Positions 2,678-52,130 of a stretch of 64,000 nucleotides of DNA are shown here, in pieces. A model generated the notes under the pieces. That model made no database searches. It was not told the DNA's origin and saw nothing but the letters and a program-made list of their open reading frames with translations. Origin of the DNA: Cyanidioschyzon merolae (Eukaryota); the NCBI GenBank assembly GCA_000091205.1, contig AP006490.2; one strand, written 5' to 3'. Each line of letters begins with the position of its first letter. The stretch's first letter is position 1. The position numbers and the translations under genes are program-made.

Positions 2678-2833
2678 GTGGTGCACAAAAAATCCGTAGC
2701 ATGGTGCGATGCGAGCGAGCGCAGCACCCAGGAGATACAGCAGGCGAATGTGCCGGTATTCTCGCCCGGCATCCGCGTCCGGCAAGAATAAAAAACGAGC
2801 TCAAATCGGCCATGCACGCGAGATACTAGTCCT

Positions 2834-3907
2834 TCACCTTCCGAGCGCTCTGCGTAAGGCGAGTCCAAGTTCGGATGGCGTCTGGACAACATGGGCGCCT
2901 GCCTCTCGTAGAGCCTGCACTTTGCTAGTGGCAGTTCCGAGGCCGCCGCTCACAATTGCACCGGCGTGACCCATTCGTCGTCCCGGCGGTGCCGACAAAC
3001 CCGCAATAAACGACGCGACAGGCTTATGACTGGACTTTTCGCGGATAAATGCAGCAGCCTCTTCCTCGGCCTGCCCGCCAATTTCCCCAATCATCACGAT
3101 GCCGTCCGTGTTGTCGTCCTCAAAAAAGTACGACAGACAGTCGATGAAACTCGTTCCGTTGAAAGGGTCCCCGCCGATCCCAATACAGAGCGACTGTCCG
3201 AGCCCGGCAGCGGTCGTCTGTGCAACCGCCTCATACGTCAGCGTCCCCGAGCGAGAGACAACGCCGATTCGCCCTGGTTGCACAATCGACGTCGGCATGA
3301 TTCCCAGTTTGCAACGTGCACCTGGATGGAGAATACCCGGGCAATTCGGTCCCACGAGACGCGACATCTGTGTGCGTTCAAGCCGTCGCTTGATTCGCAC
3401 CATGTCCTGCTGGGGTATGCCCTCTGTAATTACGACAATAAGAGGAACTTGCGCGTCGATGGCTTCCTCGATTGCTGCTGCGGCGGCCGGCGGCGGGACA
3501 AAGACCACGCTCGCGTTGGCACCGGTCTCTCGCACCGCTTCCGCGACAGTTCCAAACACCGGAAGACCCAAGTGCTTGGTGCCCGCCTTTGAAGGTGAAA
3601 CGCCGCAAACGATCTTTGTACCGTAGGCTATTGCTTGTTCAGAGTGAAACGTACCGTGTTTGCCAGTGAAGCCCTGTACGAGAACCCGGGTCTCTGGGCT
3701 CACAAACGGGGACGGCTTCCCGCGGAAAACTTGTTCCGTGTTCTGTTTGGTCGATCGCGCCTGATGGGTTAAAGTCCGGTACACGGCCAAACCGGACACG
3801 GGAAGCTGCGCCCAGCGCCTGGTCCCGCGTTCGAGAAAACGCAACATGCTGCAAGGACTCTGACCGTAAACGCTGAGTTTCCCGTGAAGCAAACGTAAAG
3901 CGTGCAT
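2834..3907 (-). CDS. Succinyl-CoA ligase (ADP/GDP-forming) subunit alpha, with an N-terminal presequence.
   Basis: Matches the CoA-binding and CoA-ligase motifs: '[14 protein letters not shown]', 'PNCPGI', '[12 protein letters not shown]' and 'GHAGAIV'. Full-length colinear match to SCS-alpha across 357 aa. Confidence 0.9.
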
Positions 3908-4980: not shown

Positions 4981-6072
4981 TCACGATGGTTTCGCAGCGC
5001 GCTGACGGCACCTCTCTACGAGTTCCCAGTGCAGCGGCGTTCGCTGGCGCTCAATGAACCATCCGTTTCGCCATCGATATTCCTTGAATCCAGCAACGAA
5101 ATCAGGGATTTTCTTCGAATAATCGAGCAGAGACTGCAAGAGCTGCCCCCGATCTAGTGCATGCTTGCCTTCAAGCCCGACCTCGCGTTCCGCGATTGGA
5201 GCGAGTTCGTCAACGAGTTGTCGGACGCGGTCAGGCTGCTTTTCTGCGATCTCACCGACAGGCATGCCGTTTTGACTTTCGCTCAATACCCCAAAGATGC
5301 AAATCCATAACAGTTTCTCTATCATGCGGCAGTCGAATTCCTGTTTATCTTCGAGTACCGTGCACTGGCAGCCGCAGCTGCGCACACGAGCCGCAAACGC
5401 AGCGGCCCAGGGGCCCCAGACCACCGTTCCACCGCCGTCTGCGGGCGGGTCTCCAACGCGAGGCACCGCAAAGAACACGAGTGCCTGCGTAGCGTGTTCC
5501 AGGTTGTGCTCAAGCAGAAAAGAACGTAACATGCCGTTCTGCAGAAAAACAAGGTCGCCACGACGCACTGGCGGACACTTGGCCACTACTTCCGCCAGGT
5601 CATCGTTGCGGGTGCAGACGTAAATGGGACCTTTTCTCCCGCCCTCGATGCTGTCCTGTCTTCGTAAGAGACGTACCGGAGCCAGCTCATCTCCTTTCGC
5701 GCTTGCCAGCAACGTTCCGATACGGCCAGCACCAACAACTGTAGCAAGCTCGCCCTCAAGACTTGCCCCCAGCGTCATGATACCCGGAGAGCGCTCGGTT
5801 CGGTGTCGTCGACAGCTGGGCGAATTCAAGCGAGTTCCGCCGCACAGCCAGCTAGTAGGAGCACAGCGGGTATGCTGATGTATCCAGACTCCCGCTGTCG
5901 AGCTAACGAAGCCCAGCATCCTAGTCACAAAGCGCACACCACCTTTTCCCAGCCTTCGACACAAGTCCAACAGCACGTCTTTGAACTGCGTGCGAGCCGC
6001 TCTGATGCCGAGGCGTGCACGCAGTGGGATCACGGACCGAGTCAGCGGTGCCTGATGCATCAGCGTACGCAC
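4981..6072 (-). CDS. NAD(P)-binding oxidoreductase resembling ketopantoate reductase (PanE/ApbA). The true start may be the internal Met at about 5778.
   Basis: Rossmann motif 'VVGAGRIGTLLA' and 'LVFLQNGM' (compare PanE 'LLIHNGMG'). The N-terminal 98 aa are basic and may be a targeting peptide or spurious. Confidence 0.4.
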   Translation of the reverse strand: MRTLMHQAPLTRSVIPLRARLGIRAARTQFKDVLLDLCRRLGKGGVRFVTRMLGFVSSTAGVWIHQHTRCAPTSWLCGGTRLNSPSCRRHRTERSPGIMTLGASLEGELATVVGAGRIGTLLASAKGDELAPVRLLRRQDSIEGGRKGPIYVCTRNDDLAEVVAKCPPVRRGDLVFLQNGMLRSFLLEHNLEHATQALVFFAVPRVGDPPADGGGTVVWGPWAAAFAARVRSCGCQCTVLEDKQEFDCRMIEKLLWICIFGVLSESQNGMPVGEIAEKQPDRVRQLVDELAPIAEREVGLEGKHALDRGQLLQSLLDYSKKIPDFVAGFKEYRWRNGWFIERQRTPLHWELVERCRQRAAKPS

Positions 6073-7690
6073 GTGCGCAGTTTTCCTTCATGGATAAAAC
6101 GTTTCCTTGGGCCAGCGTTCTCCGATTATGCGCATTTTTCTTTTCTTTTCGGGTTTTTTCAGTGCACTGTGAAGTGTCCGTCAAACCCCTGCTCCCAAGT
6201 TACATTAGCTATACACGCTGTCGCAGGTGCGCATACGAGCACGCACAGGCGCAAGGATGATAGGTTTATGACTGACATATATGGATATTATTGTAAGTGC
6301 GGATCTGACGCTTCCAGCACAGGTAGGTGCGCAAACGTAGCCGCCTGGCATGCACATCCAAGATGGGCATGGTATACAAATGGACCTTCGAGCAACCGCC
6401 GGCTTTCTGCAGCCCGCTGCGCCCTACTTTCACTGGCGCGTCGTTGCTGGCGCTGAACGGCATGATGCTGTCCGTTCGGACCCAGTGCAGACAAATGTTG
6501 TCGTGTTTCGCTACCGTGTCAAAGCGTCATTCATCTGGTTTTTCTTTGGCCGATATCTGTGCACTGGGGCTCGCTTATCGCCCCGATCCGCGACATGCAT
6601 ACGGTCGACGGCGTATGGTCATCGTGCAATGAGCTGCTATCCTCAGAATCCAGAGTAAGAATCGCGCTATCGGATATCCCTGGCTAACGTTTAAGACCCT
6701 GCGTCCAAAAACTGATTCTCGGAATATACGGTTCCTATCGCCATATTTGAGGTCCTGGATGGAAAAAGGCGCCACCTCGAAAAGCGCTGTGCGGGGCATC
6801 CGCACGACTGAACGCAAGATCCTGGACGAAGTAAAAGCTAAAGCTCCAGCGTTGCCTATGCATTAGGGAAGCCTTTTTGAAGAAAAACTAGCAACCATGT
6901 AGTACAGCAATCATAACGTACAACATACCTATGAAGATCCTTCATGATATCACAAAGCGACTGACACGGCGAATATGCGGAGGCGAGTATTGGTATACCT
7001 CTATCTACAATAACAAGTTTAGGCATTCGAACAGGTCGAGAGCAAGGCCCCCGCGTGCGTACTATACTGGGAGAACAAGCATGTATCGTTCACATGCGCG
7101 CCATGCACCACCGTGCAGAAGCGTTCTTCAAAAGTAAATCTTGATGAGACGAACCAGGGAATATTCCCGCCCGCCCAAATTTGCGATTTCAATCGACATC
7201 CAGAGAAGAACCCACCAGTTAACCGGAGATACCCTCAATTCCACAAATCCTAAACTTGACTTGCTTCCGGGGATCATGGTTCGTTGAAGCAATCCTCCGG
7301 ATGCCGGGCCCAAAGTACGTGCCGGCGACGCTGTCGAGGCCGCCATACGCACATAGGTCTGCTTTGTATACCCTGTTGAGGGACGGATCGCTTGGTGAAG
7401 CCCGTGCATTTTCCCGTCCGCTCGAAGCCGCAATGCATCGGCTCGGCTAGCTAGGTGCGTTGTTGCCGAAGTCAGGGAGGTGCAGCGGCCCGAGCAGTCT
7501 CCTGCTACGCAGCGATCACTTCTCAGTAACAGAGGCCTGGGCTCTTCAGGACATGTGCATGTGATGGTCAGCAGTGCCTCCGAACAATGAACCAACTGTT
7601 CCGTTGCTTCCATGAACCACAGAGTCTATCGGCTCGCACCAGTCGCCGCAGTGCGCTAACGAAGATGCATACCTGCAGAAGAGGCTCCCG

Positions 7691-8236
7691 CTACCTTTGG
7701 TCGAGTTCTGCTCGGTCAAAGCGCGGAACTGCACTGCGCAGTCGTCGCATGTTTTCCTCATGCTCCTTCAGCGCTGCCTGTATTGACCTACGGCGCTTGT
7801 CGTCTAAAACCGCATCAATGAGACGCATTTGATGATGCCCCTCAAACAAAAGCTCTGGTTGGTCCGTGACAGGATCACCAGACAGGCCGCCGGTAGTCCC
7901 GAGAAAAACCCGGCGGCCCCGTCCAAAGTCCCAGCAAGGTACGCGCACAGACCAACGCGGTGTCGGTGTTAGTTGTAAGCGGAAGTATGGGAAATCGCAC
8001 AGCTCAACACCGAAAGCGACCTCTGACGAGCCGTCTATCCTGGATACGCAGCTCAGCACCGCGTTGAAGAGCGAGTAGTACCGCAGTTTTCCCTCTGCGA
8101 TGAAAGCCGGCGACGGGTGCAGCTCAAACTTGAGCGTTGGGCCCTCCCGAACCGACATGACAGGCCTGCTTTTCTCAGTGACCTCTCTAAGCGCTTCAAG
8201 TGGACGCAACGTCTGCGTCGTTGCACAACAGAACAA
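7691..8236 (-). CDS. Hypothetical protein, 181 aa.
   Basis: Isolated ORF with no recognised motif. The composition is not the R/A-rich junk typical of GC-shadow ORFs, so I retain it at low confidence. Confidence 0.2.
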   Translation of the reverse strand: MFCCATTQTLRPLEALREVTEKSRPVMSVREGPTLKFELHPSPAFIAEGKLRYYSLFNAVLSCVSRIDGSSEVAFGVELCDFPYFRLQLTPTPRWSVRVPCWDFGRGRRVFLGTTGGLSGDPVTDQPELLFEGHHQMRLIDAVLDDKRRRSIQAALKEHEENMRRLRSAVPRFDRAELDQR

Positions 8237-11200
8237 GTGGCGAAACGGCGGCTACTGCAGCGGTCCATTCCGAACTGCAATTACTTCAACGCATAGCAGA
8301 CTAGAATGGAACGGGTCCGCTTAGGTGACCCGGGCGACGACATTTTAGACCTATGCGAGAATAAAATGGAAAGATGTCAGCTTCATGAATTCTGGTGTTT
8401 ACGCGAACCCATAGGCCTGCTACCAGGATGATGAACACCGGCCGGTTGGCGCTCTTTCTGTCAATGCTTTCTGGTCTCCTGCATCGTATCTCCGATACGA
8501 AATACGCTGGACTGCCGTCTCTCGCAAGTTACGCTGCCAGCAGTCGACGGGTATTCGTGGCGGCACGGGAGTCCCGATTTCGCTGCATGGGGCGGTTGTC
8601 AACGCTTTTCATCCAGAGTCGGAAGTTGCAATCAGCGTTTCTCTTGCCATTGGCATATTCCTTGGACACATCCCCGGTACGCCATCCGCAGCGTCGGCAC
8701 TCGGCTGGCGTCAGACGTTCGGTGGAGTCCGCCAGAACGCCCCCTTCGATGGCCATCCTGTGGCTCGTCCACGCTTCCCTCAGCGTCCGGTACGTGCACT
8801 GGACGGGTACAGAAGGCTCTGCTCGATACCCAGTTCCGTTGACACAACCGGTGCCGCATCCTCTGATCACGCGCTCCTTCCACGCGATCCCGACGGTGAG
8901 TACCCTGCCTGCTGCGTGAAACAGAGGATCTGTGGAACGCGGTGTTGTCTGTGGTGAAACAAGTACCAGAAGGACTATCCAGACTGGAGACGAAACCGAA
9001 AAGCTTCGCTGCGTCTATGCTCCCGCTGTACAAGCCGGTGACGCACGCTCCACACTGACACCGGTCGCTCCGACGACTACAGCCCGAGCCCAGGACCCGT
9101 TTCCATGCAAACGCAAGTGGCTGAGGCCCCTGGAAGCGCACCCCGCGAGCAGCCCCATGCTGGTGTGGAATGGCGTTCCATCTGTGGCCGCACTGAGCGT
9201 GTGGAGGATTCGTCCTTCCAATGGATTCGGTTCATTGGCGTTACAAGTGCAGTGAACATGCGGCATGAGCTTGTGGAGCATCCGTCATGCGACGGCGTTG
9301 CGTTCGTTTTCTTCGCATGGCTCCAGCGGCACTACTCTGGGGCGCCCGCGAGGTCTCTCGGGATCGAAAGATCGAAAAGCTCAAGAACGGGTGATTCGCG
9401 CACGCTACGGGCAAGCGGGGTAGAGGCATCGAGGCGTGCACGTATGGACTGGGTGATGGCATCGAAGGCTGATTCTGGGGAACGTTCACCGGCTGGGTTT
9501 CGAATGATGTTGATTCTGGTGACGTAACGAAACCGGCGGTGGCGATGCGTCGAATGAGCCACACGGACACGGCATCAGAGAACTCTGAGACTACCTAGGA
9601 ACGGGAGAGCCCTCATTGCTGTACTGGAATGTCGAGGCTGGGCATCTAGAAAGAGTCTCCGAACAAAACGTAAGGCTGGAGCAGAGCGTGCAGTTCAGCG
9701 TTCCACGCGAATCTGACGCAAGTGTTTTTGCGGCCTTCTTCTGTGCGTTCGCTTGCATTATCCCTTGCGCCAAGACGATAGCGACTGTTGCAACGAATCC
9801 AAATATTTTTTCGATCGTCGAGTTGGCAACGAAATGCAGATCATAAGTGCCTACCAAAGCACCCTGCTGTAGAGCATGGAGTCTGCTGGATCGTGGACAG
9901 CGTCGAATCCAAGTCTGGCACTTGAGCAGCGCAGCATACGGACGGTGTTCGTTGGACACTGTCAAGAATTCACGTCCTGGGTATCGCAGCAAGATCAACC
10001 GCGCGTGTTTAGTTCAAACCCAAGAAAAGATGGGTCACTCGGTAAGCGATTCACGTCCTGTCATAATCGGAAGGCGCAGCTGCCGTGCTCGTCCCTTGTA
10101 CCTGTTTGACTGGTGCCGAGGGTTCGCATTCATGAACGCCTAACAAGGCTTCCAAAGGATTGCTGCAGGCCTCGTGGGTATCGGTGCTTGACTGAGAGCA
10201 TACGGGCTCCGTATCGAGTATTGTCTAGATGTTGAAGATTCGTGCACGTTCGGCACCAGAATCGTCCGATGTTTTTGGTTCGCATTGTACAGAAAACAGC
10301 ATACGTGGCATGGATACAGCCTAATTTGATGTTATCTGGTGCTCCAGTCGGCATGTCGTCTCTGTATCATCCGGCACAAGTCGAATTACTGAAGCAGGTT
10401 ACCCGGCAGCATGCTCTGTCACGGTTTCCGGTATCGCAACGTTCCCCGCAGTTTCTCTCGCGTCTGACGCACGCCCGGCACCAGGTTTTCAAGCATTTCA
10501 GTGCATATATGTGTATGTATGTATGTATGTGTGAAGGCCTCTCGGTCAACGCATGGGCCTGCATATGGATCAGAGCGCTTCACCGAATGATCTGCCATGG
10601 GCACGAAACCCAAGGCATTTTTGGTCTGTGGCACCCAGCTCAGACCAGAATATCACTGGGGCACTTATGAACGCGATGTGTGGTTTCATTGCCCGTGCCA
10701 CTGGCTGCTCCAGAGTGCGTTCCGCAAATACGCTTTGTCCATCATCATTCGACAGTCTATTTGAAGACATCTCTCGTATAACTGCTGCCACAGGTGCGGT
10801 GGCTCGCGTCGTCATCATGCGCTCCCGAGGCACAAGTTTCGCCTCAGGACGCCTCGACGCAACCTGAAAAACGCTTACTGAGCATCCTGCAGAGTCGCTG
10901 GATCGCCCGAGTTGTCCGCTATCCAGGGGCAGCAATTTTCATGGAAAATCACCAGAGGCCTCAGCCGAGATACCATTGGCGTCTCTGGATGATTCCGTTA
11001 CAGGCCAACGTGAGTCAGTAAGAGAAACCTCACACTCAGCACGGCAACACGTCGCAGGCGCGCACTAGTCGCGGTAGCCAATGACATGTTCAATGAACAA
11101 TCATCCGAAAACTTCGCATCGCAAATCTCAAAGTTGTTTCAGATTTTCTGAGGTATCTACCAGCGAGCCCTGCTACCTCGTCATGCTCAGAATCGATAAG

Positions 11201-12383
11201 CAGCGCTTTTGTAGGCCATTCCACGTGCAAATCCAGGTCGTGCTGCCCGTTTCTGTTGTAGCCTCCTGAGCAACTGGCGCAACATGCGTCCTCTCTAACG
11301 ACCAGTGACACGCTTTCTGGACGACCTTTGCGCCAAAAACCTCATACCCGGTGTTCTACAAAACAACCCCGACACTAGTATACGAACAGAAGCGCCTGCA
11401 ACCCCGCTAGGCTCGCAGTATGCATACTAGCAAACATTGTTGCCAGTGATCGATGAGTATTGGAGCATACGGGAGCGCCCCTACATTCAGTTGCAGGAGC
11501 CTCGATACCATCCATGGTAGCATGCGCGGGAATCGCGAGAAGCAGCACAGTGTTCCGTGGCTTGCCTGCATCGCCCGTGAGCGTTCTTCTGCAGGTGCTG
11601 CATCCTACCGGCACCTCTGGAATTATACTGTTTTGGCTCCAGAAGCGCTGCAGCGATGCGTCCCGCAGCGACAAGACCATTTCAGAGCGTGCTCAGTTCA
11701 ACGAGGAGTGCATTAAACATGAGCGTCTCATCAGTCCACAGTGAAGATCCCGGTCTCCGTCGAGGATTCGTGCAAGCCGCGATGCGGTACTATGGACTGC
11801 CTCGCGCGATCTACGCCCAGCACGGGACCTCGTTGCTTTTTTGGAAATCGTGGACGTAAGAGGATTGTGTCAGGGATTCGAAACAAAGCCGTTCCGGGAC
11901 CGAGAGATTTGCAACGTTCCAAGCGCTGCAACTGGTGGATGTCACAAGCCTAGTGCACCGCAGACGCCACGCACCGTCGATGCTGTCGCTCCGAGCATCG
12001 CTGGCAAGTCATACAAGGAGCGACTCATCAGGATTCCATGGCCGTTCGTCACGTACGATACAACCATGCGATGCAGCGTCAGACCAGATGAAAAAGTGGT
12101 CACTGAGCCCACCGTCCGTATCGAGTCGCTCGCAGATACACCAGCAACACACAGCGGATCCGTCTGCATCCGGGCCGATATGAGCCCAGAGCATGCTCCA
12201 TGGCGTGAGCAAACCATTGAGGCACGCCGGATACCGCCCAGTTCACAGCACAGATGCGTCGCCTCAGGGGGCTTATCAGCTTTGGTCTCAAAGCACTGCA
12301 TCATCCTTTCAGCGTCGAATCGTTGGCTTGTCATCTTTGATGCCAGTGGACACTAGGCCATGCCTGTGCACCACAGCTAGCTT

Positions 12384-13211: not shown

Positions 13212-13384
13212 ACGTTAAGCAGAACGGTAAGCGCGCTCTGTGGCGTGTGGAAACAGCAAGGAGATGAAAGCTGCTCTGTGTAGCGCAAGAAAGCGTCGTT
13301 CAACGGTAACGTTCGCGCTAAACTCAGCGGCAACACGCCGGCGTGCCGCGCACTCCGGAACGCTGGGATTCATTTTTTTTTGAA

Positions 13385-14380
13385 TGCGCGGGGCAGGGAG
13401 CATCCACGAAGCTGTATCCTGATGGATCCGTATGAGCGGGTGTTTGTGGAACTTGCTCGCCGTGGGGCGTATGGATGCTTTGGAACGTACCCCAGTGCAG
13501 CATATCTCTGTGTCTGTGTCACGTCCGTGACTAGGAGCATCCACGAAGCTGTATCCTGATGGATCCGTATAAGCGGGTGTTTGTGGAACTTGCTTGCCGT
13601 GGGGCGTATGGATGCTTTGGAACGTACCCCAGTGCGGCATATCTCTGTGTCTTTGTCACATCCGTGACTGGGAGCATCCACGAAGCTGTATCCTGATGGA
13701 TCCGTATGAGCGGGTGTTTGTGGAACTTGCTCGCCGTGGGGCGTATGGATGCTTTGGAACGTACCCCAGTGCGGCATATCTCTGTGTCTGTGTCACGTCC
13801 GTGACTGGGAGCATCCACGAAGCTGTATCCTGATGGATCCGTATAAGCGGGTGTTTGTGGAACTTGCTTGCCGTGGGGCGTATGGATGCTTTGGAACGTA
13901 CCCCAGTGCGGCATATCTCTGTGTCTGTGTCACGTCCGTGACTGGGAGCATCCACGAAGCTGTATCCTGATGGATCCATATGAGCGGGTGTTTGTGGAAC
14001 TTGCTCGCCGTGGGGCGTATGGATGCTTTGGAACGTACCCCAGTGCGGCATATCTCTGTGTCTTTGTCACATCCGTGACTGGGAGCATCCACGAAGCTGT
14101 ATCCTGATGGATCCGTATAAGCGGGTGTTTGTGGAACTTGCTCGCCGTGGGGCGTATGGATGCTTTGGAACGTACCCCAGTGCAGCATATCTCTGTGTCT
14201 TTGTCACATCCGTGACTGGGAGCATCCACGAAGCTGTATCCTGATGGATCCGTATGAGCGGGTGTTTGTGGAACTTGCTCGCCGTGGGGCGTATGGATGC
14301 TTTGGAACGTACCCCAGTGCGGCATATCTCTGTGTCTTTGTCACATCCGTGACTGGGAGCATCCACGAAGCTGCGTCATG
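13385..14380. repeat. Tandem satellite of about 7.2 units with a 137-bp period (one 138-bp unit).
   Basis: The 'atccacgaagctg' unit start recurs at 13401, 13539, 13676, 13813, 13950, 14087, 14224 and 14361. Units are 93-97% identical with mosaic variant sites (gagcgg/aagcgg, gtctgtgtcacgtcc/gtctttgtcacatcc). Confidence 0.95.
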
Positions 14381-14956
14381 TTCGCGTGTGTATCGAGCGT
14401 ATCGCTGAGTGTGAGGTCGTTGTACACAAACGGAATCCGCAAGTAGCCTTCACATCAGCGGGTTCTCATCTCGAAGTCATCAACACTAGAATCCGCTTCC
14501 GGTCATAAACATCCACGACGTGCATGCACTGCATCAAGTTTCTGTATTTAGATCATGTTAAAGGTAGAGTCATCTGAAGAAAGTTACCTTCCGGGGAAAC
14601 CAAGTACATAGCGTATGATTCGGCAGCATGGAAGCGGTGACGCACGCTCGTCTCTTCATGAAGATGATGACGATCATTATCACCGTCGCTGTAGTGCTGG
14701 CGGTGCTCAGAGCATAGACACTGCAACATCAAGAATGTAGGCGGTAGACGCGGACTCCAGGAAAGCGCGTTTCGTTTGCTTCGACTTGGCTTCATCTTGA
14801 TGCACGCGCACCAGTATGAGGCGTTTTCCACGTCTGGATTCGCGAAAGCATCGTGCGTATCAAAACTGACGATATTCAAGCTGTTAAAACGCAATGGCTC
14901 TACAACACGAATTCCACGGATGTGCGAATGCTCTAACTTAGCAGCAATACGACCTG

Positions 14957-18710: not shown

Positions 18711-19250
18711 ATGTTTGAACCACCGGCATACATTCCTGTGACTGCTGCTCGATCTGACTTATTTCGCAGCCCGCTTGTCAAGTCCGGTGCTTCTGCTTGT
18801 GGCACAGGACGGTTATACGTTGCCAGAGCGACCAGTAGCCTGAGGAGTTCAGGGCACCGGGCGCGCGTTCGACCACTGCATTGTTCCTCGGGACTGAGGA
18901 TGCTTCTGCGGGGGTTTCCCAACCCCGGAGCTTTCAACTCCGACGGAAAACGGCGAATTATTGAAGAACTTGTGCAGTTTCCCACAGAATTTGAGTTCAA
19001 AGTTGTTGGCCTGCGGCAGGGCGACTTTACCGATGACGTCGTGGGACTCGTTGCCGGTGCGCTGCAGCGCGCAGAAAACCTCGACGTTCGCAACACCACC
19101 AGCCGAGACGACCGCGTACGAATCACCAAGGTGAGAGATCGAGGCAAGTACCGCTCACTAACGATTGTTGCGTTCTGTGAGACCGGTGCTCAGGTATACA
19201 GCGTGTACGAGGCTTTAGAGCGCGACCCGCGAGTCCTGTTCAAATTCTGA
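18711..19250 (+). CDS. DUF493/YbeD (UPF0250)-family protein with an N-terminal presequence.
   Basis: C-terminal 90 aa: 'FPTEFEFKVVG...GKYRSLTIVAF...QVYSVYEAL..DPRV' fits the YbeD family pattern. Confidence 0.5.
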   Translation: MFEPPAYIPVTAARSDLFRSPLVKSGASACGTGRLYVARATSSLRSSGHRARVRPLHCSSGLRMLLRGFPNPGAFNSDGKRRIIEELVQFPTEFEFKVVGLRQGDFTDDVVGLVAGALQRAENLDVRNTTSRDDRVRITKVRDRGKYRSLTIVAFCETGAQVYSVYEALERDPRVLFKF

Positions 19251-20112
19251 GCCATGTCCCTGGATGTGTGTACGTATGCTTGTTTGTGGCGCGCTTCCCG
19301 TGCTGCAACTCAGAAAGTTGCCAGAAGGCTTCGTGCAACCGAGTAACTTGCCAGATATGGTTGCGGCGAGCACAAGTGCGCTTATCTCGGAACGCTTATG
19401 GATGCATAGCTCTGTCACCAGCGCTCGTATTGCCGACCATGCGAAACCTCCAACCCAATGATATGCACGCGCTAGGACCGCAAAGAAAGACAGTCGATTG
19501 CGAGCATCAAAACAGATTCGATGGATGTTTTGCGGGAAGTATGTGCCATGGAAGAAGAGCGTTGCGTGCTTTTTCCCTGAGAATACGAATGACGGATGGC
19601 GGAGCAGCGCTATCGTTTCGTCGACGGCAGTTCCGTGGCTGTGGTGATGACGAAACGCTCCCGCATGCCGCCGGCAATATCGGCCGCTTTCAAGAGCGCT
19701 TCGAAAGATGCAAGCTGTTCAAGAGAGAGGCCATAGCAGCACGAAAGACATGCACTCCCTGGAAACCGGGCAGCAGGGCATTCGGGTTGATGATGTGCAA
19801 TGAACATGTGCCCTAGGAACGGCAGCATCGCACTGGTACTTGCAAACAACGCAGTAAAGCATTTGCGGGATCGTCATCAACCTTTGGTTCGGCGAGTTTG
19901 CCACCCAGCAAGCAGGGAGCATCCCCGCATCAAATCGTTCGCGTGAAAGTCGTGGCATCGATCGACATGATATGTGTGTGTGTGTGAGCGTCATTGCAAC
20001 ACCGTGCCGCTTCTAGATCTGAAACGAGGCCTGGTGCTGGCAAATGCCGTTCTCGGAGTGGAAGCGTCGGCACCGCTTCGAATAGGCCTCATGACGACAC
20101 GTACCAGAGCAC

Positions 20113-25858: not shown

Positions 25859-26939
25859 TACCAGAATTGTACAGATATATTCAGAAAAATTCGAAATTGT
25901 GTCCGTTCATCTTGCGCGCAGCGCAGCCGCTTCTTTTCCACAGCAGCGGCTACGGTCGCGCACCCCACGCTCCGGATGCGCCTACACGGTGTTTGGCGAA
26001 ACGGTGATCCGAGGCCATCGATCCTCGCCCGAATTCCAAGTTCCATCATCCATGCTGCTTCTCGGATATACTGATTACCTTATGGGTTCTATCCTTCGCC
26101 GAGTGCCTGCCTTGCTGCATCCGTGATAGCGCGTATGCCGCTGGTGCGGATGCATGACGGAGACTGTACGGCTTTGCCGTACCGCTGAGGGCGTCGACTC
26201 GAGGTGGGATTCCCCTCACACGGGGTCGGGATTCATGATCATGCTGGGAGCCTGCGGCAGTGCAAAGCGATATCCTAGAAGGCTACCACGATCAGGGCGG
26301 CGCCTAGACGCAGCATACCCGCTGCAAGTCTCAGAATCGGCTGCGTTACGGACAGGCTGCTCAGATCGCACTACAGCACCCGCTACCAAATGGGAACGTG
26401 AAGCACTGGCGTGGCAGGCTCGTCCGGCTCACGGGACCGCACCCCTTGAAGGTAAACTTTCGAAAATAGGGGAAGCGTTTCCCATTTTCTAACGTTTACC
26501 ATGCGGGTCGAACGAACTTGTTATATCGTTACTAGTAAGTTCTTAGTTTGTGGTCTTTGTTCTATATAGTGCGGTCGAGATGCGCACCTGCATTTCTGGT
26601 AGGCGTGAGATACGACGCGCATCTCGCCGTTGAAGGGGAACGCGATCCTGACCGTTAGCGTGCCGCTCTAACTTACAAGTTGGATCGACGTTGAAGTGAT
26701 TGCAAAGCATAGGCTTTCAATTCAATTGTATTTCAACCCTCAAGTGAGTGTATTCAAGTGCTTCTTCGCGGTTTATAGCAGACGCGTTCAAAGCGCGTTC
26801 GTTTTCGAATGTGAAAAAGAAAAGGTATAGACATGCAAGTCGAGGATTCTGGAGGCCCGATGTCGCCGGATTCGACAGCAAAAAACGAGAAAAAACCCGC
26901 ATCTCGCCTGCTGCCGGACGAAGGAGAGCATGTGACGTA

Positions 26940-27306
26940 GTAAAAAGAAGAAGGTAGATAGAAGAGAAAAGATGTTGCGTCGACGGGACGATGACGAGAG
27001 TGTAGTGGCACAGAGGGCACGCAGTTCAGGAACCCTTGCAATCGTGAGTTCCACCAGAGGCAATGAATGCATGGAGCTCGTGACCCAAGACTTTAACGCC
27101 GCCATCCAGACCAGACGAAATGTGGTGCTGAAGACGAGATCCGAGACGCTGAAGCGAGCCAGCTTCCTGGGAGCATCCTTCTGGGGTCGAAGTGTGCATG
27201 CAGAAATTGAAACTGATAGCAGGTCACGGGTCAAAATAGGCAGAGAGGCGTCTGCGGGTGGATGCGCTTTTACCCTCCATGGCCGTGAAACGTTGTTCGT
27301 TTCGCT
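26940..27306 (+). mobile_element. 5'-truncated copy B1 of the TnpB/Fanzor-like element: C-terminal coding remnant plus conserved 3' terminal block.
   Basis: 27000-27255 aligns with the minus strand of 1-230 and with 30468-30600. The 3' block 27245-27306 ('gcgtctgcgggtg...cgtgaaacgttgttcgtttcgctga') is nearly identical to 30600-30664. Confidence 0.5.
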
Positions 27307-27322
27307 GAACGTGTTTGTCTGA
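26972..27322 (+). pseudogene. Degenerate TnpB/Fanzor C-terminal fragment. The ORF runs on into the non-coding 3' block.
   Basis: 'ECMELVTQDFNAAIQTRRNVVLKT' is homologous to 'CRACMEFVNRDLSAAINIRRCAVLKT' of copy A. The Asp of DxNAA is kept, the cysteines are mostly lost, and there are frameshifts upstream. Confidence 0.5.
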
Positions 27323-27854
27323 CAGAAGCCGTTTAGAATGTCCAGGGATCCCCGATTATGTGATGGATATCAGCAGTCGGGAAAGCGTTCATCGTCGCAC
27401 CTATATCCAAGTTCCTTTATCTCGATGTGGGTGATCTGCGCTGCTGCGGCTGTAGCTGGCAATCCAGCCGCAATCTATGGATTCGCGTGATGCATTCTGA
27501 CTGGGCATGTTGGCATTGTCACGAGGTCCAGCGCATAGAGCGTGTAAATGCGAATACAATGATCAAGTACGGACTGCCATTGGTGCAGAATTGTCTGGGG
27601 TAGAGATCGGTCTAGGTATTGTACATGGAGCAGGTAAACAGCGACCCAAGGATCAAGTATGAATTGGAACTCTTTACGGAAATGTCTGGGAGGAACTCCG
27701 TGACTCCTTTGCACTGTGGCTCTCTATCTCTCCAAGATTCAGGCCTTCGGAATGAAGGCATGCGTAAGGTGCTCGATTCTGTTCGGCTTCTCGGTCAGCG
27801 AGGAGAAGGTCTTACGACAAAGGCATCGCGATAGAGCCGCCTCTCGAGATGCGA

Positions 27855-29169: not shown

Positions 29170-30670
29170 GTTCTGCAGCGTGTTCCAGTCTTTCAACTCA
29201 AATTGGTTCATCCCCATTGTGGGGTATAGTAGGCGGTAGGCATCACGACGCAGTATAACCATAGATTGTAGAAGAATTGCCTGTATGATCGATTCTGTAC
29301 CGAACAGTGAAAGGAAGATTGCATTCCTCCTTCAGTGCTGTCATACAACAGGATTCGGATGGTTGACGGGCACTGAAAGGAAGAAGTATTTACGCTCAAG
29401 GCCAAAAACAGATGCTCTCGAAGAATGCGTGCAATCAATTGAAGAAATCGATCCGTGGATCACTTTATGGAAAGCAAAAACGACTATTGTAGCCGCAAAG
29501 GGCGCTTCTGTTTCTGAACAGCTCGTTCCAGTGATCCAGAAAACACTGGGATACAGTCTCAAAAAAATATTTTAGTCGGCGAATGGCCATCTTCCACCGA
29601 TATCGCAACGACACCGCTCCTGGAACGTCGCTCTCGGTATGAATCACCGCCAACTCTGTTTGTTTCCCAGTCGATGAGACTTGCTTCGGATGAAACGAGC
29701 GGAGCTTATACGGGTATACGCGGAGCAGGGCACCCGTTACGTTTCCGATCAAGCTCGAGGAGATCGACGAAATCATCTCTTCTAGCTGTAGTGAATGCTT
29801 TTCGCGGCCTCGGTTTCTCTCGTAGAGAAGGCTCACACAGCGGCACCCTCTGCGTCGATTCATTGAGGACTTTTCCCTGACATCTGGTGACGTCCTTCTA
29901 TTGGGCAACGTGACATTCCACTGTTACTCTTGCGTTCCAGCTTTTGCCAGTTCTATCGGGGAGTAGAGCTGCTTTTCATGCCTCCGAAATCTCCGTAGTT
30001 CAGCCCCTTGTAGGAGTGTTTTCGATCGAGAATAGTAATGAACGCTCCATTGGCTGAATTGCTGAGCGTTCAGCACACGGTGACAAACCGGAGCACATGT
30101 GGTTTATCTTGCAAAAAGTCGTCCTCGCTCCGGAAAGACGCTCACCCAACAGCATAAACAAGTGCGTTCATTTGAACGGTTCAAAAATCTAGGGGAAAGA
30201 TATTGATATGAAATTCGAGGATCCTGGAACGCAGTCACCGGAGGTTGCCGAAAAAACGGAAAAATCCTCTTCTCATCCAGCATCGAGTGAAGAAGAACAA
30301 GTGTCGCAAGGAGGCGAAGCGGAGATATATTCGAGAAATGGTGTTTGACGGATGGGACCTTGACGAGACTTGAATGGCACGGAGGACACGAATTTGAGGA
30401 ATGAGTTCAACCGGCGGCAATAATCGCACTGGGTTCTGGAATCGTATCGTATACCTCGTCCTCAATCTCAGGAAATGTGCGGAGCTGAAAAAGAGACCTG
30501 CGTAGCTGACGCGATCCAACTTCATAGGATAACCTCTCAGGCTCGTAGCGTGCCTGCATAAACTGAAACCGAGAGCAGCTCATCGCTCAAGAAAGGCTCG
30601 GAGGTGTCTGCGGGTGTGTATATATTTATCCTCCGCGGTCGTGAAACGTTGTTCGTTTTACTGATAACAT
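29170..30670 (+). mobile_element. Copy B2 of the TnpB/Fanzor-like element. It has full-length homology to copy A but is frameshifted. The 3' end is about 30664.
   Basis: The reverse complement of 29170-29560 aligns with 994-1370. The + ORF 'KAKTTIVAAKGASVSEQLVPVIQKTL' is a frame-conserved homologue of A's 'KAKATIVATTGASVSPQLVRGVLKSL'. 30468-30664 aligns with the A and B1 3' regions. Confidence 0.5.
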
Positions 30671-30989
30671 ATATATGCAGCGCCCAAGTTTCAAGGCATT
30701 TGCAACGAGGATGCAGGTTTCGATGGATGCGCATACAAGGCCGCGGCATCTTCGGAGATCGTGGATGGTGTACTGCCTGCTGCATGGTACAGAATCGATG
30801 AAGTTGATCCGAGTCTTGTGGATGTATGAATCATTTCCGCAGCCGAGAAGCGGGCATCGATTCCATCAAAGAAAATTCCGCATGCTGCCGATGCTGTACC
30901 CGAGTCAGATTAGAATGGAGCACTGTACTGCTCGTTATGATCAAGCCTTTTGTTTTTTGAACTAATTTGCGGGTACAGTCTTGACGTTC

Positions 30990-32200
30990 GAAGTGAATCA
31001 ACCGGGTTGAAGGATTCATGAGTAGTTTCAGGAGTCTCGATCGTCGTTGCCGGGCAGCCGCTTAGCCGCGTGGCTGCTGGTATTCGTTACGGCACCGGGA
31101 TCAAGGTGCATCGCGACGCCCACGAATTGAGGTTCGTAATATAGTCGACTCGTATACCGATGCATGCGTTCGAGCCGGCACTCTTCGCCTTTTCTAGCGT
31201 TCAGTACGCTCACGTCACGCATAGTTCGCGCCTTCGATCGTGCGGTTTCCCAGCAACAACACATGGGCGCAGCAGTTCGCGCTGCCCCACTGACGAGGAA
31301 GCGTACGCGCCGTCATCGCTTGAACGAATTGCTCAGAGGCACACACGCCGAGCATTCACTGCACTGGGCACCTGCAATACTCGATTCCACTCGAATGATG
31401 CATCGTCCATGCTTGTGCGCATCGACGCAACCGCACGCAACCGCACCCAGCAGCAGCAGCAGCAACAAAAACAACAACATAGTACATCTCACGGGATACG
31501 CTCGGGGAAGCTCCCGTCTCTTTCCTATAGACGGAAAAGGGTCGTGCACCAGGGCTCGCGTCATCGCGGCGATCATATGCCGTGGAGCGTGCGACACCGC
31601 GTTGCATGGACGCAGCTCAGCCGGATCGACTGTGTGTTTGCGTCATGGAGTTTCCTTGCTGCACGTGCTCCACCAGGGACAGCATCGCGATCCACAAATC
31701 CGCCAGTGAATGGAATAGTGTGTACGCTTGCGCGCCCAGCGGACGCGGGACTTGTTGCCCTGATCGCCCGCAGCAGGTCCGTGGTCGTAGCGTGCGATAC
31801 CAGTCGCGGGAGCGTGGGGGCGTATGCAGGCGAGCACGCTGTACCCGTTCGGATCCTGGAACCAAGGGATGAAGCGAGCGCCTACTCGCCGCAGCGCAGC
31901 GCTCGGTGCCTGACATGTGGTGGACGCGCACGGGAAGCGCCTCTCGGTAGTCACGCGTGACTGCTCCTGAGCCATGCCGCCGTTGTATGCAAACCAGATG
32001 GACATGAATAACGACGCGTCGATCGCAACGACCACCTGCGCGTGAAACGCGTTGAGCACAGCCGGACTCCGCGGGATCGGGACTCGAATGGTGCCATCAG
32101 CATCCCTCGAGTGTTGATCATAGAGCCAGAGGGAACAGAGAGACCAGCGTATTGGAAATCGGCGGTAACAGAGACAGAATAAGAGCAGTCGCAGTAATAG
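30990..32200 (+). repeat. Copy 1 of a 1.2-kb direct repeat.
   Basis: About 98% identical to 37406-38610. Similarity decays at both edges. Contains a (CAG)n(CAA)n tract at 31448-31480. Confidence 0.95.
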
Positions 32201-32464
32201 ACTCCAAAACTTTATCATGGTAACAGGGGCAAGAAACCAAAACTTGAGCATGTTTACCCAGTTGTCTCTGCGTGGACGTATTCCATTTCATTCCGACACG
32301 GGTGCAAGGCCGCCAGTCGCAGTGTAACGAGGCACACCAGCCTCGGTGCGATGCTTCCGGAGTAACGCGCTGAAGCGGTGTCGCCTCATCGGATCGCTCT
32401 GCACTTGATGGATGGCGCCACGAGGGCCACAGAAAAGCAGACGGCGCGCGGGCGAGCGCATGCA

Positions 32465-37019: not shown

Positions 37020-37405
37020 CGGCTAGTCGTCCGCGTTTTGCGTCGCGTAGACAGAAGCGCGGGCGTGATGCCTCGCCTGCGTTCGCACACGCGTACGCAC
37101 GCGCACGGGCGCAGGGCGCCATCGGCGACTGCGGCGGCGCACAGCGGCCCGCCGTAGCGTCGATCAGAATGCGACGCATAAACGGTATAAAGCGGTATTG
37201 CGAGGCCAGAGTTGGATATAATGGTCAGGCGCACGTGTATCGCTGCATCGATGCGCAATCGACGATACGAGCAGGGGCACTGTGTGGCACGGGCACTCGT
37301 GTCCGATACATACGCAACGGGGAACTGCTCATTGTGTTCCTGGACGATGATGTATATCCCCGAGCCTTTGTTATATGTAGAGTCTCGACAATCAAAATGA
37401 AGAAA

Positions 37406-38610
37406 CCGGGTTGAAGGATTCATGAGTAGTTTCAGGAGTCTCGATCGTCGTTGCCGGGCAGCCGCTTAGCCGCGTGGCTGCTGGTATTCGTTACGGCACC
37501 GGGATCAAGGTGCATCGCGACGCCCGCGAATTAAGGTTCGTAATATAGTCGACTCGTATACCGATGCATGCGTTCGAGCCGGCACTCTTCGCCTTTTCTA
37601 GCGTTCAGTACGCTCACGTCACGCATAGTTCGCGCCTTCGATCGTGCGGTTTCCCAGCAACAACACATGGGCGCAGCAGTTCGCGCTGCCCCACTGACGA
37701 GGAAGCGTACGCGCCGTCATCGCTTGAACGAATTGCTCAGAGGCACACACACCGAGCATTCACTGCACTGGGCACCTGCAATACTCGATTCCACTCGAAT
37801 GATGCATCGTCCATGCTTGTGCCCATCGACGCAACCGCACGCAACCGCATCCAGCAGCAGCAGCAGCAGCAGTAACAGCAACAACAACAACATAGTACAT
37901 CTCACGGGATACGCTCGGGGAAGCTCCCGTCTCTTTCCTATAGACGGAAAAGGGTCGTGCACCAGGGCTCGCGTCATCGCGGCGATCATATGCCGTGGAG
38001 CGTGCGACACCGCGTTGCATGGACGCAGCTCAGCCGGATCGACTGTGTGTTTGCGTCATGGAGTTTCCTTGCTGCACGTGCTCCACCAGGGACAGCATCG
38101 CGATCCACAAATCCGCCAGTGAATGGAATAGTGTGTACGCTTGCGCGCCCAGCGGACGCGGGACTTGTTGCCCTGATCGCCCGCAGCAGGTCCGTGGTCG
38201 TAGCGTGCGATACCAGTCGCGGGAGCGTGGGGGCGTATGCAGGCGAGCACGCTGTACCCGTTCGGATCCTGGAACCAAGGGATGAAGCGAGCGCCTACTC
38301 GCCGCAGCGCAGCGCTCGGTGCCTGACATGTGGTGGACGCGCACGGGAAGCGCCTCTCGGTAGTCACGCGTGACTGCTCCTGAGCCATGCCGCCGTTGTA
38401 TGCAAACCAGATGGACATGAATAACGACGCGTCGATCGCAACGACCACCTGCGCGTGAAATGCGTTGAGCACAGCCGGGCTCCGCCGGATCGGGACTCGA
38501 ATGGTGCCATCAGCATCCCTCGAGTGTTGATCATAGAGCCAGAGGGAACAGAGAGACCAGCGTATTGGAAATCGGCGGTAACAGAGACAGAATGTGAGCA
38601 GTCGGTGAAC
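37406..38610 (+). repeat. Copy 2 of the 1.2-kb direct repeat.
   Basis: About 98% identical to 30990-32200. The CAG tract is longer (37851-37892) and contains TAA, which breaks the 266-aa + ORF seen in copy 1. Confidence 0.95.
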
Positions 38611-39753
38611 AAACCGGCAAGGGCTGGTGTTCATAACCACGGGAATAGATGCAAACTATAGTAGATATGCGCGCGTTGACAAAGCTTTACATTTTATTCC
38701 TGCATTGTTGGAGAGCGTACACCCGAACTGGCCAATGGACCTGTTCCGTTCTATTCTTTCGTGGGTGTAAACGTCCCGGGGATAGTCCATGCACCGAACC
38801 CGAATTCCTCGGATGTGCGATTGCTATCGGCCGCCAGGATAGCCGCAGTCACTTCTCTCCTGGTGCGTCTACGTTCGACAGACCTCTAGACCACTCCCCT
38901 GGTTGGCGATAGAGCTTCGATCAACCCTGCGAACCTGCAGGTGCCGAGCGTGCCGCACACGCTCGATATCCGGACGGATGCGCCGCTGCCGCCGACCGCA
39001 AAGAGAACGGCACTCCAGTGCCTTGACAGACACCAGCTCAAAATCTAGCGCATGGACACGAAGCGTTCTCCCGGTTGGGCAGCGTTCGCCCTGCACACCA
39101 GTAGGTATACGCGTTCACATAGTCCGTGTACACAAATGCGCTTGGGATCCTTTCGGGCCTGGGACCGCTGATGAGAGTGCTCTAATGGTATCCACGTACA
39201 GTAACGGCTGTTACGAGCCAGGACGCGTGTCACCTCTGTATCCTGGACTGCGAGAGTCGACATCCCATTGAATGTAGACAAGTGGACTGGGTGAGGGACT
39301 CAAAATCTCGGACCCAGCCTCTGCGCCCTGTACACGGGACTTTTATTCCTGCAGCGGTGCATAAAACCGTTGTTCACAACGTACGCATACTAGCATGACC
39401 GAAGTATCCGTTCACAGCTTCAAGGCTTATACTCGTACGACACGAAACTCGGAAGTTGGTCGATCGGCGCCTTCGCCAAGTTGCCCCAAAATCGCTGCAA
39501 CACCGTCCGTGCAGCCTTCACCGCACTCTATGCACAAGAACAGCGGCGCCTTGCGTTCATCACTACAGTTCAGCGGTTCGTTGTATGCAAACCAGCAACC
39601 ATACGACGGGACAAATGTCTCGCTGGTCGCTTGCAAGCGTGCTCCATGCACCGCGTTCAGCCAAACGCTCTGGCGTTGAACGCTCATCCACAGTGGCCCT
39701 GCGTATCGCACGATGATCCCGTGTCGACGTGCCGCTGCGTTGATCACAAAGCT

Positions 39754-46284: not shown

Positions 46285-46521
46285 CAGTGACGTCGACACC
46301 ACCGTGTGCAGACGCTGTGCAGGTAGTGAGGCACACACCGTCGCTGCGCGACCGCCGCGCCAGACGTGATCGCCTCTGCCGGGTGGCCAGCGCTCCTGGC
46401 GTCAAGCTTTGTAGGGTATGCTTCAAGGCTGCACTGGGGTAATCTAGTCGAGAGTAGACTCATCTGGGGTACTTCGTTCGCGTATAGCTCGCTCGGGGAA
46501 CAGCGGTGCGTGTCAACGCGA

Positions 46522-46657
46522 GCTGGGTTGTTCATTGGTTTGTGGGTCTTGATTCGAACGAATTGTCGGGTTTATTGGAGGTAGCGCGTGCTGGGTTGTA
46601 CACTGGTTTGTGCGTCCTTATTCGAACGAGGTTTCGGGTTTATTGGAGGTAGCGCGT
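46522..46657. repeat. 2 x 68-bp tandem duplication in the region upstream of the PNPase gene.
   Basis: Units 46522-46589 and 46590-46657 ('gctgggttgt.ca.tggtttgtg.gtc.t.attcgaacga...tcgggtttattggaggtagcgcgt') are about 88% identical. Confidence 0.85.
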
Positions 46658-50722: not shown

Positions 50723-51936
50723 AAATCGTCGTTGCCCATCCAGGCGCTACCCGTTGTGGTTCTATTTCGGGATCACTGTGGCGCGCTGATCCACCAGCGC
50801 TGGCGGCGCGCGCCATTCTGGGATGACGGCGGCGGAGCGCGGCCTCGCGTTTGACAACGGCGCTGCGCACGCTCCAAGCAGCGACACGTGCCTCATGAAC
50901 AGCGACTGCAGGCTGATGGCGTGCACGCACGAAGCTGCCAAATTTGGCGGCCGGCTCGCTGTCCGGTGCTCGCTCGCATCCGGTGCCGTCGCCACATGGA
51001 TCAGATTCAGTGCGGAATTGCGCTGAAATCCGCCGCAGATTGATTGCAACGCATTCGATATTCCGGGTGTGCGAATAGGTGCGAGGATTCAGGGGAAAGC
51101 ACAGCGCTTCTATCGCAAACGCTGTCGAGCAACGTCAAAGTCGAGAACAGAGTTACGAGTACGAGAAGAAGCGTGGCCGATTTTGAGAGCCAGCCGGTGT
51201 CAAACGTGGCCGGCACGCTTGCTGCGACGCTGGAAGCCGCCCCTCAGAGAATCTTCAGGAACGGTGCGTCTCAGGGCTCGGAGCAGGAACGGTGCCGCTG
51301 ACGGCAGTCACGCCCGTTGTACTGCGCACGATGTGCTATCGGCGATCGGAGCGCGCTCAAAATCCTAACTGTGAGTCTCGAGCAAGTCTTCTTGTCCACG
51401 CAGTGCGCAACGTCTCGTTACTATCGGGTTCGCGAGACGTTGCTGCGAACACGCGGGTGCTCTCGTGTACATTCGAGAAAGCGGCTGGTGCAAGCGAGAC
51501 TGTTGGTGTAATGCAGCGCTTTGCGCAGCGGCGATGTGCTGTAGCCGCAGTCGCCAACGCGAGTCGATGAAATATTTGCACGCCCAGCGCATAGCTGGTG
51601 ATGGAATTCGTATCGCTCCAGGGCGCGCAGACGCTCGCTGCGATCTCGAGCGATCAACATCCACTCGCTACAGAATACCCTTTTCAAAGTGGAGTCGAAA
51701 AGGTACCCGAGCTCCGGCGTACATGCTGTGGTTTGGGTTTCTTCGCTCTACGATCATCATCGCCAGCGTTTTGCGGATTTATTTATGGGGCTGCTTCGGT
51801 TTCGTCGCGTTCATCTCCGGGTTGAGATACGCGGGATCCGTCCTTTACCCCCAAATTTCGTTTTTATATGTAGAGGCAAGTTGATGACGAGGTCCAAGTC
51901 CCGATGTCGCCATGCCCGTCTGTTTCCAGGTAATTT

Positions 51937-52130
51937 CATGTACAGAATGGAGATGTGATTAACGTTTTGGTAGCCATTTTCATCCTCGTGGCACACACGC
52001 TGCGGTGCGCGCTTTGCAGCGGCGACTTGGCTGTGGTCAAGCGTGCTGATATATTGACCAGCAATATGATGCACAGAATGTAGATGCGATCTACGCTTTG
52101 GTAGGGATTTTCATCCCCGTGGTATACACT
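51937..52130. repeat. Two diverged copies, about 80% identical, of a 62-bp motif spaced 131 bp apart.
   Basis: 'atgtacagaatggagatgtgattaacgttttggtagccattttcatcctcgtggcacacac' versus 'atgcacagaatgtagatgcgatctacgctttggtagggattttcatccccgtggtatacac'. Confidence 0.7.

Follow-up and report, generated by a model that had tools for sequence, protein, structure and literature searches.

A conserved right-end block with a subterminal hairpin in internally deleted Fanzor1 elements of Cyanidioschyzon merolae as a candidate guide RNA scaffold

A conserved block at the 3' end of a short repeat, designated B1, was analyzed in a 64,000-nucleotide (nt) stretch of Cyanidioschyzon merolae DNA (contig AP006490.2 of assembly GCA_000091205.1), which is called the window below. 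The window was eukaryotic and intron-poor and belonged to chromosome 8, and its IP5 2-kinase was identical to CMH142C of C. merolae 10D. We proposed, with moderate confidence, that the block forms the final ~72 nt (27245 to ~27316) of a short, internally deleted 'ghost' element of the Fanzor1 family CMe-1, serving both as the 3' part of an omega-RNA scaffold and as the right end of the DNA element. Homology to CMe-1, a position between the final Fanzor1 codons and the end of the element, conservation above that of the rest of the element and a hairpin favored on the sense strand were the observations that carried this proposal.

Fanzor proteins are eukaryotic relatives of TnpB and Cas12, and their biochemical activity is better established than their service to the transposon in living eukaryotic cells. 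The Fanzor1 family of C. merolae is among the largest published (~150 to 253 copies reported, ~5% of the genome), and no guide RNA for it was described in the literature searched. The transposon family and the concept of a ghost locus have already been published. Within the same literature, no description was apparent of the lineage of deletion derivatives, of the tail that sets it apart, or of a conserved subterminal hairpin that could be a guide RNA scaffold of C. merolae.

An earlier note on this DNA had pointed to a TnpB/Fanzor system. This lead was upheld by the ancestry of the repeat, namely its homology to CMe-1, and by the position of the block, which runs from the last Fanzor1 codons to the right end. 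The structure suggested in the note was not upheld; the one with some support was a different hairpin located inside the second of two conserved boxes.

Conserved boxes and Fanzor1 ancestry

B1 and a second repeat, B2, were ~530-600 nt long and carried the two boxes at their 3' ends, with an overall identity between them of only 66%. Box 1 (GTCTGCGGGTG) was located at 27250-27260 in B1 and 30606-30616 in B2, and box 2 (CGTGAAACGTTGTTCGTTT) at 27284-27302 and 30640-30658, respectively. The letters of each box were the same in both repeats, as had been noted before, and were also unchanged in B5, a third paralogue obtained from metagenomes. The sequence between the boxes was indeed variable; its length was 13, 13 and 15 nt in the three copies, therefore it was out of frame. 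The whole 3' block of B2 spanned 30601-30664 on the plus strand.

In the three-way alignment of B1, B2 and B5 over the ~600-nt element, the boxes were the sole invariant runs of at least 7 nt, measuring 19 nt for box 2 and 10 nt for box 1 (27250-27259), and the invariance collapsed at ~27305-27318. A run of 19 was reached in 2 of 20,000 column shuffles of this alignment. The identity was 77-83% in the block vs 53-65% in the rest of the element. By chance, 0.01 occurrences of the box 2 19-mer were expected in the 64-kb window. The box 1 11-mer at one mismatch was found 3 times in the window with 1.66 expected, which alone was not unusual.

The sole polymorphism recorded in either 3' block among the population contigs was T/C at 30629 in B2 (atttaTcctcc vs atttaCcctcc), a change that would turn a G·U pair into a G-C pair within an unsupported hairpin of the variable middle. 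The B1 block showed no variation in any B1 population contig read.

The ancestry of the repeats was assessed with the CMe-1A consensus and the CMe-1 protein taken from the supplements of PMC3627910. CMe-1A was described there as a Fanzor1 family of C. merolae with a consensus of 3,169 bp and ~150 copies ~80% identical to it, lacking inverted repeats, with target duplications undetermined and no transposase assigned to CMe-1; its 5' 635 bp were recognized as a separate element, TE-N2_CMe (Bao & Jurka 2013, PMC3627910). Additionally, an interspersed element of 3.2 kb that includes a WSV486-like open reading frame (ORF) has been reported to be transcribed and to number 253 copies (Nozaki et al. 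2007, PMC1955436).

In a blastn search with the consensus, window positions 26035-26892 matched consensus 90-969 with 77.5% identity and 27023-27139 matched 2849-2969, the homology carrying on to ~27260. B1 itself (26710-27319, plus strand) joined consensus 785-969 to 2849-3084 and retained the left end, the ORF start, the deletion junction, a C-terminal ORF relic and the right end. Its left-end motif TTTCAATTCAATTG was found at 26715. The relic of the Fanzor1 ORF start, MQVEDSGGPMSP... (compared with MEKEVEDPGGPVSP... in CMe-1), was located at 26834-26941 on the plus strand and matched CMe-1 residues 1-43. A relic of the last ~90-100 Fanzor1 codons, carrying a stop and a frameshift, followed at 26996-27260 on the same strand and covered CMe-1 residues ~640-728. 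In tblastn searches with CMe-1, over residues ~628-729, the identity was 44% for B1 and 53% for B4. The relic included the third RuvC motif, which read QDFNAAIQT in B1 vs NRDFNAAINI in Fanzor1.

The other copies were built in a similar manner. B5 corresponded to consensus 785-968 and 2862-3084, B4 to 786-860 followed by an inserted module and then 2737-3092, and B6 likewise matched the consensus on both sides of the deletion. Stops or frameshifts were present in B1, B2, B4 and B5, ~570 residues including RuvC motifs I and II were missing, and none held an intact nuclease gene. Matches to both the consensus and the protein on either side of an internal deletion thus characterize the B repeats, by sequence, as internally deleted, non-autonomous Fanzor1 elements of the CMe-1 family, in which both ends are retained together with the beginning of the ORF and its last ~100 codons. 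A solo long terminal repeat or a short interspersed element had also been considered for the repeat, and both were dropped because of the homology to CMe-1A.

The B1 ORF alone, used as a protein query, retrieved just two relatives, and a profile of several B translations was needed. A search with such a profile of C-terminal translations yielded 74 short ORFs in alga-rich metagenomes, and the deletion junction RRDDDETVVAQRARV was common to at least 12 further short ORFs among them. The common junction indicates a single ancestral deletion followed by amplification.

No usable match to CMe-1 was obtained in sequence searches against PDB (phmmer, profile), and only a faint match to PF07282 (E 0.23) in Pfam, hence a fold search was needed. 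An AlphaFold model was examined for P0051, an intact relative of 42% identity (mean pLDDT 64.5). Its top 7 PDB matches were all Fanzor1 proteins (SpuFz, PpFz, GtFz; E 6e-14 to 1e-10), with Cas12 proteins next, so the parent protein family is predicted to have the Fanzor/TnpB fold. The ORFs neighboring the block were host genes or had no Pfam match, and no TnpB/Fanzor gene was found beside it, the nuclease relic being inside B itself. A 526-aa ORF adjoining B5 was considered as a Fanzor and rejected as a sphingomyelinase-like host gene.

Four copies of the B repeat were present in the window (B1, B2, B3 and B4), and B5 and B6 were further copies. B2 (29187-30676, plus strand) was an element of the same type with a ~940-nt inserted module, named A, at 29239-30171; it was delimited by a left-end motif at 29191, homology with B4 across the module and the tail alignment. 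The earlier note had the block shared by all copies, which was not the case. B3 (53042-53411, minus strand) was truncated or diverged on its 3' side, retained just the 5' ~370 nt (positions 19-390 of the B profile in nhmmer) and lacked the block. B4 (1-1351, minus strand) consisted of a left-end piece (1351-1279), module A (1276-334) and a C-terminal relic (319-1) and ran off the window start; its tail, read from L037 (13590-13680), was decayed. Box 2 was missing in B6.

The tails of ten copies of the lineage were read as DNA: B1, B2, B4, B5, B6 (L047), L050, L051, L053 and two in L054 (L054a and L054b). After the box 2 hairpin, the ten tails remained weakly alike for ~10-12 nt more (CTGAnnACAT-like), and then the homology stopped. 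The right end of B1 was therefore placed at ~27316-27319, leaving a 3' tail at 27306-27319 (plus strand). The complete divergence claimed to occur just after '...ctga' was hence set too early, as the element ended ~10-13 nt further on. The left end was marked by TTTCAAYTCAATTG at consensus ~788, often with YAGTC directly before it. Neither terminal inverted repeats nor target-site duplications were found in the ends and flanks of the copies.

The block and the box 2 hairpin

The block was further aligned with the CMe-1A consensus and four full-length copies (L043, two in L044, and L046). Box 1 with its upstream letters (GAGGCGTCTGCGGGTG, 27245-27260, plus strand) matched codons for ...G-R-R-L-(H/R)-V close to the C-terminus of Fanzor1 and is a fossil of the final Fanzor1 codons. 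The variable middle together with CCTCCATGG matched the very last codons and the stop, and box 2 matched the terminal hairpin region of the CMe-1A tail (GAAACGTTGTTCGTTTCGCTGAACGTGTTTG in B1, compared with GCGACGTTCGACTTTCGAACATCGTGTTG in L044). Full-length CMe-1A copies likewise ended in hairpins close to the right boundary. Box 2 is a subterminal hairpin near the right boundary of the element.

The B copies and CMe-1A/TE-N2_CMe occur in the same genome, share DNA homology over the two consensus segments that are joined in B1, have the same ORF start and C-terminus, and a TE-N2-like 5' part lies upstream of B1. Unlike CMe-1A, the B copies are missing ~1.9 kb of the ORF and begin at consensus ~785 rather than at position 1. 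They form a sister lineage to CMe-1A with its own C-terminal signature, KTRPAELTRSNF..RLEVY..KPIAGGRSKK. The B tail departs from that of CMe-1A after GTCTGC, and the box 2 hairpin takes the place of a ~35-nt hairpin with the loop ACTACTGTACAC.

In the CMe-1A tails, the loop ACTACTGTACAC was invariant and the stem varied (GCCGCC/GGCGGC vs GTCGCC/GGCGAC). These hairpins were located at ~11600-11660 in L043, at ~11370-11425 and, on the minus strand, ~5810-5755 in L044, and at ~2460-2510 in L046. The related motif CTACTG(T/G)A followed the stop codon of distant, 42%-identical intact Fanzor1 genes in other metagenomes (L048 ~3270-3320, L049 ~3650-3700). As a candidate scaffold element, the CMe-1A hairpin is conserved better than the block of the B type. 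The two CMe-1A copies of L044 stood head to head, 24 nt apart, at 5767-8893 (minus strand) and 8917-11410 (plus strand), one being full-length and the other starting from consensus 660.

As RNA, the box 2 hairpin reads GUGAAACG / UUGUU / CGUUU(C/U)(G/A)C, and it was predicted in B1, B2 and B5. Folding and the alignment of copies located it at 27285-27305 in B1 (GTGAAACG / TTGTT / CGTTTCGC, plus strand) and at 30641-30661 in B2. A hairpin was found at the same place in nine of the ten lineage copies, with a combined Z of -4.2 for copies that are not independent. The diverged copies L051, L054b and L054a had it at this place with a different sequence.

From a MAFFT alignment made without regard to the structure, RNAalifold recovered six pairs. 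In this alignment, 87% of the cells were paired vs 39-59% in the control with the partner slid, and three of the six pairs were changed on both sides. A manual table fitted to the structure contained 56 standard pairs out of 58, including 7 G·U and no A·C. The exchanges included A-U to G-C in L054b and C-G to U-A in L051. The covariance model R1 was not used for the pair counts, because its MAFFT training alignment placed 1-nt loop deletions at the row ends and was out of register for L051, L054a and L054b.

The sense strand was the more stable one in 7 of 9 copies, with totals of -54.6 vs -32.8 kcal/mol. A strand-specific subterminal hairpin is reasonably, not conclusively, supported by these data. 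A further hairpin of the variable middle (GGGTGGA/TTTACCC, 27256-27275, plus strand), seen in the single-sequence fold, was rejected on statistical grounds, as its stability was no better than that of shuffles (combined Z of -0.26 for the ten copies) and covariation was lacking.

Role of the right end and competing explanations

The guide RNA of characterized Fanzor systems comes from the stretch that separates the 3' end of the ORF from the right end, and it reaches into the flank (PMC10432273, PMC10530073). In Spizellomyces punctatus, ~134 ORF-less Spu-1 'ghost' loci of ~550 nt hold a conserved scaffold that is functional with the protein (Saito et al. 2023, PMC10432273). The position of the B block fits the omega-RNA scaffold layout, reaching from the final Fanzor1 codons up to ~12 nt before the homology ends, and the block is conserved above the rest of the element, as such a scaffold would be. 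The B elements, represented by the ten copies read and at least 12 junction-bearing ORF fragments, also have the traits of ghost loci, being multi-copy and ORF-less with the element ends kept. Since their right-end ~72 nt are best kept, as in the Spu ghosts, an omega-RNA scaffold combined with a DNA terminus was the preferred explanation.

We proposed that a sense transcript runs through the right end, so that the hairpin region would supply the 3' part of an omega-RNA scaffold and the adjoining flank would act as the guide. Fanzor1 produced from full-length CMe-1 copies would bind such an RNA in trans, and the same bases would also set the right end of the DNA element. Propagation limited to copies with an intact right end is the most likely reason why the interior decayed and the boxes did not change. 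The right end and strand-specific hairpin of this non-autonomous sub-family thus offer a concrete place to seek the guide RNA, at the loci B1, B2 and B5.

A farther-reaching proposal, which we consider possible and rather improbable, is that the B elements are live stand-alone guide RNA genes, whose right ends are made into omega-RNAs loaded on CMe-1 Fanzor1, with the scaffold intact in B1, B2 and B5. If this were true, C. merolae would possess a whole set of natural guides. Because the genome of this alga is complete and nearly intron-free and gene targeting by homologous recombination is routine, what a Fanzor naturally does in a eukaryote, in transposon homing or retention, could then be tested there directly.

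Several observations weigh against a guide RNA scaffold in the B block. The covariation of the hairpin was modest: 37 of 500 shuffles attained its score, and RNAalifold gave a covariation term of only -0.41. The copies are related by descent, the hairpin arms are A/U-rich, and the single-sequence z-scores were weak (-1.85, -1.81 and -0.10). No match was obtained in Rfam at the gathering thresholds or at E<=1. The pairings suggested in the earlier note fared no better. GGAGG/CCTCC would be possible at the ends in B2 and B5 (B1 has GAGG), and compensatory changes were looked for in GGGTG/CCTCC as well; neither pairing showed covariation or was more stable than shuffles.

The distribution of the element adds further points on the same side, most of which, like the missing Rfam match, also speak against present activity. 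The B-lineage tail lacks the ~35-nt hairpin whose loop is invariant among the CMe-1A copies, and an autonomous element ending in a B-type tail was not encountered. B1 and B2 occur in all population contigs covering their positions, hence recent mobility is not evident. When the metagenome collection was scanned for the exact box 2 19-mer, only three alga loci were found, namely population alleles of B1 and of B2, plus B5 (L018, L029, L031). Unrelated contigs from the same collection (L011, L012, L013, L015, L021, L023, L030, L032, L035 and L036) also held the exact 19-mer, within a repeated unit ...CGTGAAACGTTGTTCGTTTCCKGATTCGGACRTCTCACGTTTTACGTTTCACCTTTCAC that is probably a bacterial repeat element, and this match was taken to be coincidental.

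The main and serious rival explanation is that the hairpin is a DNA-level end signal without an RNA role, read as top-strand single-stranded DNA by a transposase, either of the HUH type known from IS200/IS605 and Helitrons or of another kind. A location 11-14 nt inside the right boundary is the geometry of IS200/IS605 right ends and Helitron 3' ends, and G·T wobbles and the strand asymmetry would fit a top-strand DNA hairpin as well as RNA. The family has no terminal inverted repeats (PMC3627910), and target-site duplications were not detectable. However, the same survey assigned no transposase to CMe-1, none was seen among the genes beside the copies read, HUH genes included, where no systematic search was made, and the ends are unlike the CTRR terminus of Helitrons. 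Overall, this explanation was regarded as doubtful and yet worth serious weight. The DNA and RNA roles of TnpB-type ends overlap on the same bases, thus it is not fully exclusive of the preferred scaffold. Should the hairpin act purely at the DNA level, it would point instead toward the way in which the family transposes.

It is unlikely that the block is a functionless relic, with boxes common to three copies by chance, by recent common descent of the segment or by gene conversion. The restriction of the exact 19-mer to three loci, the loss or decay of the block in B3, B4 and B6, and the fixed and immobile appearance of the elements in the population would agree with a relic. The rarity of a 19-base invariant run among the shuffles and the diverged middle speak against it, since gene conversion would also have homogenized the highly diverged sequence between the identical boxes. 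Further, L051, L054b and L054a keep the hairpin in place with a different sequence.

Conservation by an overlapping coding frame, which the earlier note had named as an outcome that would refute its proposal, was rejected. The copies carry stops and frameshifts, the middle varies without regard to frame, and six-frame translations of B1, B2 and B3 revealed no shared ORF on either strand. It is very improbable that the deletion derivatives carried along a signal for the 3' end or termination of the former Fanzor1 mRNA. The block does lie at and just past the position of the ancestral stop codon, and in B2 and B5 the hairpin is succeeded by T-rich runs, but a dead ORF would not maintain such a signal, yet the boxes are the best-kept part, and the homology stops ~12 nt past the hairpin as it would at an element terminus.

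A host non-coding RNA gene, whether for a C/D-box small nucleolar RNA (snoRNA) with a terminal CUGA or for a different known RNA family, is effectively refuted, since the CTGA just after the conserved stretch in B1 and B2 is replaced by AATGG in B5, no box C lies upstream, Rfam gave no match and the Fanzor1 homology accounts for the whole unit. Hammerhead-like motifs (TGACGAG ... GAAAC) were rejected along with the C/D-box snoRNA for want of an Rfam match, CTGA not being conserved.

Adjoining repeats and comparison with known systems

The region upstream of B1 (26035-26714, plus strand) corresponded by blastn to consensus 90-~785 and was a TE-N2_CMe-like 5' part. A separate fragment of 103 nt adjoined the right end of B1 at 27320-27422 (plus strand) and matched CMe-1A/TE-N2_CMe consensus 4-106 with 77% identity. 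Together, the two segments look like a tandem or nested arrangement, or like an insertion beside a TE-N2 start. A role of TE-N2 as a long terminal repeat was rejected, as a CMe-1A 5' fragment was found downstream only at B1 and was absent from the full-length copies.

Of the ten B-lineage copies read, six contained module A (~940 nt), placed after the left-end piece and before the C-terminal relic. Besides the two window copies given above, on the plus strand in B2 and on the minus strand in B4, it was located at 9109-9860 in L050, 1693-2975 in L051, 2052-2953 in L053 and 16466-17391 in L054. It held a 96-aa ORF (29285-29575) that neither matched Pfam nor resembled the CMe-1 protein. The module is either captured cargo or a second non-autonomous family with the same ends.

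Fanzor1 remnants in several frames were also observed at 55359-55916 (minus strand) and in L037 at 19074-19989 (minus strand), with 35% and 29% amino acid identity to CMe-1 residues ~370-697, respectively. They appear to be a second, older and more divergent Fanzor1 lineage in the region.

Other repeats of the window included a tandem array at 13252-14510 (137-bp unit, ~8 copies, 95-98% identity) and a 68-bp unit in tandem duplicate at 46517-46652 (87% identity). A recent segmental duplication with 97-99% identity, 30973-32290 and 37377-38613, began ~300 nt downstream of B2 and included a 266-aa ORF with a CAG/glutamine run. A dispersed repeat family, C, was represented by 8351-9694 and L037 15597-16940, which were 99% identical, and by others of ~67-70% identity at 31031-32287, 51897-52959 and L031 7882-8500. 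Family C tended to sit downstream of B copies in the same orientation; it was unlike CMe-1 and was not matched in Pfam.

The right end of the B elements was compared with those of known systems. In IS200/IS605 elements with a TnpB omega-RNA (also called reRNA, right-end element RNA), the right end carries a subterminal imperfect hairpin ~10 nt from the end, which overlaps the 3' end of the nuclease gene and folds in a strand-specific manner. The B right end resembles it in the distance of the hairpin from the end, its place at the 3' end of a nuclease gene and its strand-specific folding. The B elements differ in being eukaryotic, and no TnpA-type transposase was found in the loci read.

Helitrons have a short hairpin ~10-12 nt before their 3' end, no inverted repeats and no target-site duplication. 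The B right end is similar in all three features, whereas it has no CTRR terminus, the elements do not have the 5' TC, and no Rep/helicase gene was seen in the loci read. In Chlamydomonas, Fanzor1 rides in Helitrons (PMC3627910).

No sequence similarity was found between the B elements and Spu-1. The Spu-1 elements have 30-nt inverted repeats and a scaffold located after the stop codon, whereas the B elements have no inverted repeats and their block overlaps the last codons. The RNAs of the Spu ghosts are expressed and functional (PMC10432273), whereas those of the B elements are putative. In common with the Spu-1 ghosts of SpuFz1, the B elements are ~550-600 nt long, occur in multiple copies, have no Fanzor ORF and keep the right-end region as their best conserved part.

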